A DNA stretch of 64,000 bases, from assembly GCA_951406725.2 (NCBI GenBank), contig OX597834.1, positions 19,964,001 through 20,028,000 of the forward strand, in the 5' to 3' direction. The stretch comes from Octopus vulgaris (lineage: Eukaryota). Shown piece by piece: positions 1,149 through 59,419 of this stretch. A program made the translations under genes and the position numbers. Position 1 is the stretch's first letter. Every line of letters starts with the position of its first letter. Under the pieces are notes generated by a model, which was given only the letters and a program-made list of their open reading frames with translations, was not told the origin of the DNA and searched no databases.

Positions 1149-1521
1149 GGACACACACGCACACAGAAATAGACCGTTACTTACACGCATGCACACATAC
1201 ACATAGATACACATGTATGCTTATGTATTTATCAATAAACACCTCCATCTCTGTATTAATTTCACCCCATATCTCTTCCATCATTCTTTTTTATTCTTTA
1301 ATCTAAATAGACTTTAAAATCCCTTTAAATAAACCTGCCTCACTTTTCTTAGTTTACCCACTCTCTCTCTCTCTCTCTCTCTCTATCTCCTGCTCTCCGT
1401 CCTCTATGCCAAAGCCCCTTTTCTCTCTCCATCTCTTTGTGTGTGTCTTTCTCTCTCTCTCTCTCTATCTGTCTTTCTCACTTTCTCTCTCTCTCTTTCT
1501 TTATCTCTCTATCTATCTATC

Positions 1522-1552
<31 letters not shown>

Positions 1553-3523: not shown

Positions 3524-4572
3524 CCGCTTCCGCTTCTCCAACTGCCCCCTTCGCTACCATCCAGCCTCACACCACTGCCTCTTGTTGCTAGACCGACCAA
3601 GTCACACAAACGACACTAGTCACAACTCACTCCACCTGGTTTGACTGTTTCTTTCATTAAAACTACGCAGTCAGCCTGACCACAGTATCATCAGCTTATC
3701 ACACACACACATACACACACACACACACACACGTGTACTAAATCAATCACATAGTCTGACTTACATACAAACACACATATGAAAGTACACACACTCTCAC
3801 ACACATGCACATATAAATGCATACGCGCACACATGCAAGTGTACAAATACACATATACACACACTAACTTTAACTTTTGCAAATACATGCGTTTGATCAC
3901 ACGCACACATGCATATATTTATTTATGAATATACATACACACACACGCATATATTTATGTGTGAATATACATTTGCACATACGCACACATATTTGTTATA
4001 TGAATATATATATGGACACATATACATATATTTATGTATGAATATGCATAAATATACACACACACACACATGTATATTTATGTATACACATGCACATATA
4101 CATATTTATGCATGAATACACACACACACATATTTATGTATAGATATACATATGCATGCACACATACATATATTTATATATGAATACACATACACACACA
4201 TATTTATGGATAAATATAAATACGCATGCACACACATGTATTTATGATTGAATATACATACATATATACACACACACATGTATTTATGTATACATATGCA
4301 TATGCATGCACACACACATATATTTCTGTGTGAATATACAAACACACATATACATCCATATTTATGTATGAATATACATACGCACACACATATTTAAGTA
4401 TGAATCTACACACACAAAGTTACATATTCACGCAATTACATATACACACACAATAAAATGTACACGCACTGACACAGATACACATATGCATACATACTCT
4501 CATTGGTATTCATAACAACAGAAACTTAAACACACACACATATTCGCAAACACTATCACACACATACACATA

Positions 4573-8959: not shown

Positions 8960-9100
8960 GGCTGCCGTTTCGGTGTTGATGGCAGTGTTTACGGAATACA
9001 ACAACGGTGGAACCGTCTTCTGTACTTGTGGCATTTATAGGAATTACATTGACTGCTGCTCGCGGACGAAGTGACGCTTGGTGTTCACGACCCGGCCAAG

Positions 9101-9319
9101 ATGACCACAAGTGTCCAACAACAACAGCAGCAGCAGCAACAGCAGCAACAACAACAACAGCAACAATCGCAAAAGGAGGGTAAACAGGGGTCCAGTCGGA
9201 TACCTGTGGCACGAGTAAATAGCAGTGGCAGCTGGGACACTATACTACCTGAGGACCTCGACGACGCTTTACACCCACCCCTCGCTGACGACTCAGGGGC
9301 CACCACGGATAGAGCTCAG
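9101..9319 (+). CDS. Putative first coding exon (73 codons, phase 0) of an unidentified gene; polyQ N-terminus with SxIP-like motif
   Basis: ATG in good context (gccaagATGa). The frame reads MTTSV-(Q)17-SQKEGKQGSSRIPVARVNSSGSWDTILPEDLDDALHPPLADDSGATTDRAQ, with mixed CAA/CAG codons and complex, GC-richer sequence. It ends at a consensus donor CTCAG|GTAAGA (9319/9320). A possible upstream acceptor is ttctgtacttgtggcatttatag| at 9040/9041. The family was not recognised. Confidence 0.72.
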
Positions 9320-10014
9320 GTAAGAACTGTAGAACTTGACCCTGCAACCTCCCACCCCATGACACTATCCTCTGACCTCTTAATTCATCCATCCACCCGT
9401 GCATCCATTCTCCGATTTTCAGATTTTTTTCCCCCACCCTCAACACGGAACTTGCTGTCCCATTTTACTTTCCAGATTCGAAGTTTATATATGTTTGGCG
9501 TGATATAAATCCGGTTGATTTGGTTTGTGTGTATACCTGTGTACATGTGCATATGTGTGTGGTGTGGGCGGGTGGTAGGAAAGGAGTGAGAGGGGAAAGT
9601 GCAGGGGGAAGAGAGGTCAAAGGTCGACTCTAGTAATAAATGTTTGATTCTGCCGTGGCAGGGAGGTAATATAGATCTGTACGCTCCTGGCTGATGTATT
9701 CCAACTCACTTATCCCATAACTCTTCACTGCTGCTGGACAGAAACTTTTCTTTACACACACAGACACAAACACACACACACACACACACACGCACACATG
9801 TACACATGCACACGCATGTATGTATGCATGTAGCTGTATGTGGAAATGTGTTTATATCTCTATGTTTCTATGCGTATCTTACATCATGTGCTCTCAATAT
9901 GTAACTTTAACGTCATTTAAAAGTTAACATACAATATTTCTGTATTTCTATATTTTTATCCTGTATCTTATACATGATATACCATATATATATTATATAT
10001 AATATACATATAGG

Positions 10015-30612: not shown

Positions 30613-30823
30613 TTACGGAGATGTACTTGCATAGCAAGTGATTTGATCTGGGATTGTGTGCTGAAACGAAAACATTTGCAGCATGGAAGGTGTTTGTAAG
30701 CCATTTAAGAAACACACAAAAGCCGTTTGATTCACTTCAACATTTAAGTTTAATTTGTCAAAATATTTTCGTCGCTTTAAGACCGCAACCTGTTCACTGA
30801 CAAAAATCCATGCTGCATCCGTG

Positions 30824-58226: not shown

Positions 58227-58284
<58 letters not shown>

Positions 58285-58288
<4 letters not shown>

Positions 58289-58496
58289 CCAGATGCAGCA
58301 TGGAATTTTGTCAGTGAACAGGTCGTGGTCTCAAAGTGATGAAAATATTTTGACAAATTAAATTTAAATGTTGAAGTGAATCTAACGGTTTTTGTGTGTT
58401 TCTTAAATGGCTTATAAATACCTTCCACGCTGCAATTGTTTTTGTTCCAGCACACAATCTCAGATCAGGTCACTTGCTATGCAAGTACATCTCTGT

Positions 58497-58498
<2 letters not shown>
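58285..58498 (+). mobile_element. ~215-bp (TA)n-embedded element carrying the variant hammerhead (copy B)
   Basis: Homologous to 30613-30826, with a terminal hairpin ACTTGC-tat-GCAAGT, and flanked by (TA)n on both sides. Confidence 0.75.
58307..58357 (+). ncRNA. Hammerhead-like fold with G3-C8 swapped core
   Basis: UUUGUCA-GUGAACA-G-GUCGU(ggucucaaa)GUGAU-GAAA-AUAU-UU-UGACAAA: 7-bp stem I, 5-bp stem II (with GU pairs) and palindromic AAUAUU stem III. Confidence 0.6.
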
Positions 58499-58533
<35 letters not shown>

Positions 58534-58701
58534 TGTGATCACGTGACCAACTAGGCTATCAGATGTTGTTACACTGATCACACTGTGCTTTTGCATTGTT
58601 TTAGCCTTCAAATGATGCCACCCTGCTGGCTAGGTGAGCAGGCCAACATTCCTCCCCGATCAATGGAGGACTAGAACAACATGAAGTGAAGTGTTTTGAA
58701 T

Positions 58702-58927
58702 GTGGCAAGTTGGCAGAATTGTTAGCACATTGGGCGAAATGCTTGGTGGTATTTTGCCTGTCGCTAGGTTCTGAGTTCAAATTCTGCCAAGGCTAACATT
58801 GGCTTTCATGGCTGAGGTCAACTTTGCTTTTCATCCTTTTGGGGTCAATTAAATAAGTACCAGTTACGGACTGGGGTCAATGTAATCAACTTAATCCCTT
58901 CCTTGTGCTTCCAGTAGAAAGAACTAT
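58702..58927 (+). mobile_element. Nin/Deu-type SINE whose (ATT)n tail hosts the R4/Dong fragment
   Basis: Homology as above, with a small internal duplication of gaggtcaactttgc/ggctaacattggc. Confidence 0.78.
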
Positions 58928-59071: not shown

Positions 59072-59419
59072 TTATTCTTCAAGCACCTTCCGGAGTATTG
59101 AAGCAGCTCTAACCAGTGCTGTTTTCTGCAAGTGCTCCTCCCCTTTTGCAGCCCCTATTTCTTCCACATACTTCTCAAGATTTTTGCTCACTGTTCCCAG
59201 GGATCCGACAGTTATTGGTACTACTCCTACCTTTTTCACCACCCACAACTGCTTAACTTCCCAAGCTAACCTGTCTTATCTCTCAACTTTTCTTTCTTCC
59301 TTATCGCATACCTTGTTGTCAGCTGGGCATGTTATATCTATGCTCCAGCATAGTTTGTTTTCTTTCTCAATTTAGACTATATTCGGCTTCCTATTCTTTA
59401 TCTCATGGTCGCACTGAAA
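59072..59419 (-). pseudogene. Decayed C-terminal restriction-like endonuclease domain of an R4/Dong-type non-LTR retrotransposon (5'-truncated)
   Basis: Translation: FQCDHEIKNRKPNIV*IEKENKLCWSIDITCPADNKVCDKEERKVER*DRLAWEVKQLWVVKKVGVVPITVGSLGTVSKNLEKYVEEIGAAKGEEHLQKTALVRAASILRKVLEE*. It matches the RLE motifs (R/K)PD, ID.xP, K..KY, VP..vG.LG and LQK..L...ILRKVL, with two in-frame stops. The 3' UTR runs to ~58994, and (TAA)n flanks both sides. Confidence 0.88.

Follow-up and report, generated by a model that had tools for sequence, protein, structure and literature searches.

A short repeat in the genome of Octopus vulgaris resembles a hammerhead ribozyme in which two core nucleotides have been exchanged. 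In the window analysed here (64,000 nucleotides of contig OX597834.1, assembly GCA_951406725.2, positions 19,964,001 to 20,028,000 of the forward strand), two copies of the repeat had been proposed to fold as type I hammerheads with G3 and C8 in place of C3 and G8, and the repeat had been attributed to a Penelope-derived or retrozyme-like element. The locus raises two questions: whether the exchange is a natural, compensated change in a ribozyme fold, and what kind of element carries it. The two copies are about 90% alike over ~208 nt and both lie inside TA microsatellites. Their features (PLE, Penelope-like element; pLTR, pseudo-LTR; cut site numbered as in the accessible text of PMC4209133) are as follows.

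58291 to 58498, + strand: copy 1, a solo short PLE insertion (5' leader with the hammerhead and the first 31 ORF codons) that ends at the long tail end
30613 to 30820, - strand: copy 2, a solo short insertion of an intermediate subfamily, within a TA-rich microsatellite
58307 to 58357, + strand: minimal type I hammerhead fold of copy 1, with a 7-bp stem I, a 5-bp stem II and a palindromic stem III
30754 to 30804, - strand: minimal type I hammerhead fold of copy 2, with G3 at 30797, C8 at 30792 and U17 at 30761
58314 to 58321, + strand: core box GUGAACA of copy 1, with G3 at 58314, C8 at 58319 and the inserted G at 58321
58307-58313 and 58351-58357, + strand: stem I of copy 1
58322-58326 and 58336-58340, + strand: stem II of copy 1
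58341 to 58350, + strand: GAAA box (58341-58344), self-complementary AAUAUU (58344-58349) and U17 (58350) of copy 1
between 58350 and 58351, + strand: predicted cut site of copy 1
58407 to 58498, + strand: ORF start of copy 1 (ATG at 58407), with the family's two 3' ends at ~58438 (short) and 58498 (long), the PLE tail
58228 to 58285, no strand: (TA)n target, left flank of copy 1
58500 to 58531, no strand: (TA)n target, right flank of copy 1

The fold was borne out at these positions in both copies, which share the stems, the GUGAACA box with its extra G, the GAAA box, AAUAUU and U17. All seven stem I pairs are Watson-Crick in either copy, and the features of a minimal type I hammerhead (stems I and II, palindromic stem III, G10.1-C11.1, A15.1-U16.1, H17) were found, with the literal core CUGANGA replaced by GUGAACA. 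Stem II contains G-U wobbles, at three of five pairs in copy 1 and one of five in copy 2, and copy 1 has a G-U at 10.1-11.1 through decay. The stem II differences had been said to keep Watson-Crick or G-U pairing and possibly to be CpG transitions; we trace the wobbles to CpG decay after insertion, because the divergence at stem II CpG sites (14-15% of cells in family copies) resembles that at downstream CpG sites (11.7%). In the youngest subfamily all 12 of the 12 stem pairs are Watson-Crick.

Folding energy alone would not reveal the hammerhead, since neither window copy is more stable than shuffled sequence (z +0.17 and -1.37). The hammerhead fold of copy 1 is predicted to lie 4.3 kcal/mol above the energy minimum, and a predicted ground state, 1.4 kcal/mol below the hammerhead fold, pairs G3 with U17. 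Helices I and II remain in the predicted fold of the complete leader. When two hammerheads were co-folded, no stable dimer through stem III emerged; the model lacks tertiary contacts and is little informative on this point. The expectation that canonical searches would miss the family proved correct: a CUGANGA descriptor fails by construction, and Rfam returned no hammerhead at E<=10 for either local stretch and none among the best 150 of 547 matches for the whole window. A metagenome pattern scan and a PDB search each gave 0 matches.

The repeat is far from the two-copy element that was originally described. A DNA search of the octopus's own genome (2.8 Gb) gave 3,350 first-look candidates, 40 of which were scored, and an exact 20-letter core pattern matched at least 6,861 times with G3 and 218 times with another base at position 3. 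In contigs from runs under four organism labels the core is the same, with no listed variant at position 3 or 8, contigs being prone to drop rare variants.

The insertions have the anatomy of PLEs. In 26 loci for which the core was the only selection criterion, every one of the 41 arms stops at either of two 3' sites ~58 nt apart (query 148-162 in 17 arms, 205-214 in 24), and 15 of the loci are inverted arm pairs; a partial inverted arm on the 5' side was seen in 13 of the first 30 loci. The inverted 5'-truncated copy with a tail is a PLE character, as are variable target-site duplications in AT-rich targets. Non-simple flanking duplications of at least 8 nt, with a mode of 12 nt, were present at 26 of 53 loci (a few are TA runs with one other letter), against 3.8 loci on average and at most 12 with shuffled flank pairs; 14 further loci of the 53 are insertions in pure (TA)n. 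Two loci, L091 and L092, are tandem duplications with units of 3.4 kb and 2.6 kb, each holding one repeat copy and flanking DNA.

Upstream extension was found in 998 copies, where a branch-point-like, pyrimidine-rich stretch ending in CAG lies just before the leader (L129:4195-4222). This stretch resembles the intron end beside the D. virilis Penelope hammerhead and may alternatively mark a transcription start. The search for a splice donor or a spliced junction for the leader was negative, and 51 copies without the acceptor-like sequence share no upstream exon. Many copies, in this family as in the family 3 described below, begin with an extra G (TG or TGAG), for which a copied cap may be a better explanation than splicing. 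The leader's 5' end (L129:4223-4228) is predicted to pair with the hexamer before the short 3' end (~4356-4361), a pairing that could bear on priming or on 5' inversions.

Longer copies, which the original prediction had suggested looking for, place the repeat within an autonomous element and bear out its Penelope origin. Several continue, over kilobases, into an ORF that encodes RT motifs, a cysteine linker and a GIY-YIG domain. One locus, L129, is a complete unit made up of an inverted truncated copy, a 5' pLTR, the ORF (broken there) and a 3' pLTR; the pLTRs flanking the ORF are 98.4% alike over 1,118 nt, and their hammerheads lie 4,261 nt apart. Another, L130, has 998 codons without a stop, containing DKSG, YVDD, CQSNCAVC, VYQIKC, YIGET, HAVDCH and NRKSEW. 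We take YVDD and DKSG to be the RT motifs; Pfam RVT_1 gave no match to this ORF, and GIY-YIG matched above the cut-off (E 1.6e-5). The cysteine linker between RT and endonuclease, CQSNCAVC at residue 869, fits both CX2-5CxxC and the narrower CX3CXXC. RT identity is also indicated by 6,852 database relatives of the L130 protein, the closest labelled a hypothetical protein of Octopus vulgaris itself and the others unnamed. The ORF starts inside the repeat, at window position 58407, ~57 nt past the predicted cut, so that its first 31 codons occupy the final 92 nt of the repeat. The repeat is the pLTR end plus the ORF-start tail of an autonomous Penelope-like element.

Other elements lie close to copies of the family. 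A second, different PLE with a Pfam RVT_1 match and GIY-YIG (L098:2427-4865, +), which we take from its motifs to be Poseidon-like, is directly beside one copy, and a canonical CUGAUGA minimal hammerhead of another family lies at L100 ~4115-4175 (-). Next to a further copy is what is presumably a Tc1-like transposase fragment of 239 codons (L099:5740-6456, -). In the window, copy 1 is directly followed by a presumably SINE-like repeat with an (ATT)n tail (58533-58920, +); 59072-59275 (-), with similar pieces at L097:3-464 and 998-1444, is taken to be the 3' end of a LINE ORF with a restriction-like endonuclease tail. A poly-glutamine run occurs in an open frame of ordinary composition (9053-9508, +), which is possibly a host exon.

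The central question is whether G3 and C8 are a compensated pair. G3-C8 is the source state of the family, kept by all subfamilies including the youngest; both changes are transversions and lie outside CpG. Bases other than G at position 3 occur in 3.1% of matches (218), against 3.07% for neutral G decay (142 of 4,628 cells). Copies decay neutrally after insertion and so cannot show covariation; the informative level is that of the source elements. For the same reason core-versus-flank conservation among copies, which had been put forward as a check, is not a valid test of the ribozyme. When the comparison was run, the core was not clearly better kept (non-CpG divergence after insertion of 3.1% against 4.2% in the flank). 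Among 92 arms, loop II has non-CpG variants that reach 8% in 5 of its 8 columns; upstream and downstream the counts are 3 of 14 and 10 of 129 columns. Stem I has a single such variant (U-A to U-G), the core and stem II have none, and the excess conservation of core and stems over the downstream flank alone is not significant.

One minor allele stands out. G8 was found in 253 matches, or ~3.4% of the family, while C changes to G at a background rate of 0.43% (17 of 3,959); the first 100 of these matches comprise 93 G3/G8, five U3/G8 (one of them family 2, described below), one C3-G8 and one A3/G8. Other counts gave G8 in 2 of 66 cores in an independent sample, 1 of 100 core matches and 1 of 29 in the youngest subfamily. 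G8 was common to both arms in 3 of 7 inverted pairs, and shared changes at position 3 were seen in 0 of 10, which argues that the mismatched G8 was often already in the template. We considered G3/G8 as a basal lineage and rejected it: the G8 arms do not group into a clade, lack a diagnostic site of their own and, when compared within subfamilies, show no greater age. Taken together, their divergence is a little higher (3.4% against 2.3%, n=23 and 34, p 0.035). The change of C8 to G is about eight times commoner than background (L143-L171), and in family 3 U3-to-C reaches ~7%. In both families the minor allele is the canonical nucleotide and yet creates a mismatch; relic intermediates, conversion or an RT hot spot may be the cause.

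Sister families provided the level of comparison that the copies could not. Family 2, found through a stray match, shares stems I and II with the G3-C8 family but has a different loop II, a different stem III and flanks that cannot be aligned; one locus (L233) joins its hammerhead to its ORF start. The sister ORFs, here and in family 3 below, are homologous to that of the G3-C8 family, with 34% identity over 154 aa for L248 (E 5e-23) and 46% over thumb plus endonuclease for L235. With positions 3 and 8 left free, 14 exact family 2 matches comprised ten U3/G8, three C3-G8 and one G3/G8, with C8 in none. Family 3, reached from the ORF start of family 2, gave 2,320 exact matches to its U3-A8 hammerhead pattern, the first 100 of which are U3-A8 in 92 cases, C3/A8 in seven and A3/A8 in one. 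It looks like an undescribed PLE family with the same short-copy anatomy (L255-L274, L364-L390).

A pattern with A or C at position 3 and G or U at position 8 gave 42 matches (C-G 21, A/G 11, A-U 8, C/U 2). Thirty loci were fetched from it; 11 represent a C3-G8 branch of family 3, and six are C3-G8 copies of family 2. Two old loci, at positions 1490-1545 (+) of both L370 and L371, have an A3-C7-U8 core with matching stems, and the remaining A-U matches either belong to decayed members of the G3-C8 family and of family 3 or are unplaced. Downstream, L370 resembles the G3-C8 family (equalled by 0-1 of 500 shuffles with three references) and not family 2; the flank similarity of L371 and L380 to the G3-C8 family is not significant. 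These two loci tentatively suggest A-U as a further natural 3:8 state in the clade, and there are hints, from one or two old copies, of a route from A-U through G-U to G-C.

Position 3 faces position 8 with G-C in the family studied here and with C-G, U-A and also U-G in its sisters. In 14 hand-picked rows, which are related and serve for description only, the two positions pair in all 14 (U-A 5, U-G 5, G-C 3, C-G 1), and U4, G5, A6, A9, the inserted G, G10.1 and A15.1 are invariant; stem II has a single two-sided change in these rows, C-G to U-A. The probability of chance complementarity at 3:8 across the three well-sampled families is a few percent. Since the sister families keep the fold and pair 3:8 otherwise, the swap looks truly compensated. 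The compensated C3G/G8C change that had been read from the two window copies is supported by these sister families and not by the window copies, and we regard it as likely.

Whether cleavage takes place is a separate matter. We aligned 95 arms from 87 stretches, selected by their 3' part alone among the first 100 of 5,471 matches. Forty-one start 16-30 nt before G3, 11 more do likewise save for a one-base-indel alignment artefact, nine start further upstream and the rest are scattered; a single arm, an internal deletion, starts within 3 nt of the predicted cut site, and no peak of 5' ends is seen there. As arms begin upstream of the cut site and practically never at it, the templates were uncut RNA. 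On comparative grounds we put retained self-cleavage of the G3-C8 hammerhead at somewhere between an even chance and likely.

How an uncut template and a maintained 3:8 pair may go together is suggested by the anole PLE described in PMC11167929. In the accessible text of that work, the PLE protein nicks AT-rich DNA and primes inside the RNA at two ORF-start sites that define the tail in vitro; its hammerhead cleaves only with protein and uncut RNA is the main template; insertion in vitro does not need the hammerhead; C3G and G8C each abolish cleavage and the double change partly rescues it. Partial rescue by C3G/G8C is likewise described for hammerheads including a PLE one (PMC11167929, PMC8495972, accessible parts). 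We favour, as the probable explanation, a PLE leader/tail repeat in which selection for a slow ribozyme, assisted by dimerisation or by protein, accounts for the G-C at 3:8. The transcript would start ~20 nt before G3, and the element protein, by analogy with the anole PLE, would nick AT-rich DNA and prime reverse transcription inside the RNA at the two ORF-start sites. Synthesis primed at the 5'-proximal sites would reach the uncut 5' terminus after copying ~150 or 208 nt, leaving solo copies; priming at the 3' copy of the sites would give long, mostly 5'-truncated elements. Slow cleavage, through a dimeric stem III (two pLTR hammerheads per transcript) or with protein help, would occasionally process read-through or tandem transcripts or down-regulate the element, and insertion would need no cleavage. 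According to the accessible text of PMC3884650, the active fold is the only one in which positions 3 and 8 pair, so upkeep of the pair would imply occasional cleavage. U17 may be permissive for G3-C8, though a wobble with G3 is predicted in the ground state, since G3-C8 reportedly fares worse with C17 (PMC3884650, same text).

The uncut templates could also mean that the leader keeps the fold for binding a protein or controlling translation, with a negligible cleavage rate and a 3:8 pair that only holds the tertiary shape. The propagation of mismatched alleles (G3/G8, and C3/A8 in family 3) and the persistence of helices I and II in the predicted whole-leader fold agree with this, as does the anole element, whose hammerhead cleaves only with protein and whose mutants still insert (PMC11167929, accessible text). 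Uncut templates are, however, expected of a ribozyme too, and G12, the pairing of position 8, A15.1-U16.1 and H17 are kept across families with ~35-45% protein identity; we consider a purely structural leader unlikely, if worth keeping in mind.

It is more improbable still that the hammerhead is a relic here, its two core mutations having drifted to fixation and being complementary by chance. Such a history would be in keeping with the existence of G3/G8 source templates, the lack of excess core conservation within the family and the small number of independent families, but 3:8 is complementary in each of the three well-sampled families as well as in the C3-G8 branch, and the nearest older relative found, L370, reads A3-U8. 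At the subfamily level loop II and the flanks changed, whereas a single A-to-G that keeps a wobble pair is the only difference in the two stems and the remainder of the core. That the repeat is a non-autonomous retrozyme, SINE or MITE with terminal inverted repeats is very improbable: short copies are indeed more numerous than long ones (the core matches 6,861 times, whereas 998 copies have upstream sequence and first-look RT candidates number 485), many loci resemble inverted repeats and the two ends share a 6-nt inverted match, but the repeat is directly continuous with the RT and GIY-YIG ORF on both sides, as L129 demonstrates, arm lengths are unequal and variable, duplications range from 8 to 14 nt in place of a fixed length, and no locus read contains head-to-tail arrays of the 208-nt unit. 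Both a DNA transposon, raised at the outset as a possible outcome, and the retrozyme-like part of the original prediction were dropped on this evidence, the copies being solo or inverted, with no ribozyme tandems of the kind that non-LTR retrozymes form without an autonomous ORF.

A slow, assisted ribozyme in a PLE leader is the reading carried forward here. The clade provides comparative evidence for selection on the active fold, in that 3:8 changes identity yet stays paired, and it offers matched natural constructs in near-identical scaffolds (C-G, U-G, U-A, G-C and the mismatched G/G and C/A). The solo 150/208-nt copies amount to a genomic read-out of internal priming on uncut RNA. In the octopus genome, at least two families, each with copies in the thousands, escape searches based on CUGANGA or Rfam, so calls of "hammerhead-less" PLEs need wider descriptors. 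A bolder reading, which we hold only tentatively and think somewhat less probable than its converse, is that one Penelope clade in one genome explored all four Watson-Crick 3:8 pairs and U-G, with G/G and C/A intermediates as propagated minor alleles; this would be compensatory evolution in a still-catalytic ribozyme core that is dispensable for insertion, and the first natural G3-C8 ribozyme in a eukaryote. The results are incremental for ribozyme structure and useful for the function of hammerheads in PLEs, an open question according to the accessible parts of PMC8557442 and PMC11167929.

Part of this picture is already known. Cervera and de la Pena (2014, PMC4209133, accessible text and Fig. 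S3) described minimal type I hammerheads in pLTRs of metazoan PLEs, and both the inserted nucleotide after A9 and natural 3:8 covariation (U3-A8) in PLE hammerheads are reported there, with U3-A8 cores in Schistosoma and U3/G8 cores in Saccoglossus. The octopus hammerheads share with that set the type I fold, the short palindromic stem III, the extra nucleotide between A9 and G10.1, G10.1-C11.1, a UH site that is often UU and the many solo and opposite-strand copies. They differ in that G3 occurs in 0 of the 56 representatives of Fig. S3 (53 CUGA, 3 UUGA), in the inserted base (G, against H in the consensus) and in having several 3:8 states in one clade and one genome. Natural U3-A8 is also reported in PMC3088659, the accessible part of which contains no G3-C8. 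In the literature we found G3-C8 hammerheads only as engineered mutants, and the variants of Lunse et al. 2017 and Arkhipova et al. 2017 may include a natural one; the G3-C8 family was not found in the literature on octopus PLE hammerheads. Among cephalopods, Rfam hammerheads have been counted in the giant squid (PMC6962438, accessible text).

By the features listed in the accessible text of PMC8557442 (Craig et al. 2021), the element would be a Neptune- or Nematis-type PLE. It shares with these EN+ elements a single ORF with a C-terminal GIY-YIG, the CX2-5CxxC linker, cysteines within the GIY-YIG core and a downstream H..CH, as well as pLTRs, the inverted 5'-truncated copy, the tail and (TA)n targets; the tail is ~58-60 nt long in the octopus family, against 30-40 in Neptune and Nematis. 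Animal non-LTR retrozymes (PMC7229834; bioRxiv 10.64898/2026.07.22.740005; accessible parts) are likewise short, non-coding type I hammerhead units from PLE pLTRs. They form tandem units with canonical hammerheads and circular RNA, whereas in the octopus an autonomous parent exists and its solo or inverted copies begin before the cut site. A further parallel is Poseidon_Ac of Anolis (Frangieh et al. 2024, PMC11167929, accessible text), which also has its hammerhead at the pLTR-ORF junction, two RT start sites, AT-rich targets and no sign of cut RNA ends. The ORF begins inside stem II in Poseidon_Ac and ~57 nt after the cut site in the octopus family, and C3G/G8C, an engineered partial-rescue mutant in the former, is the natural state of the latter.
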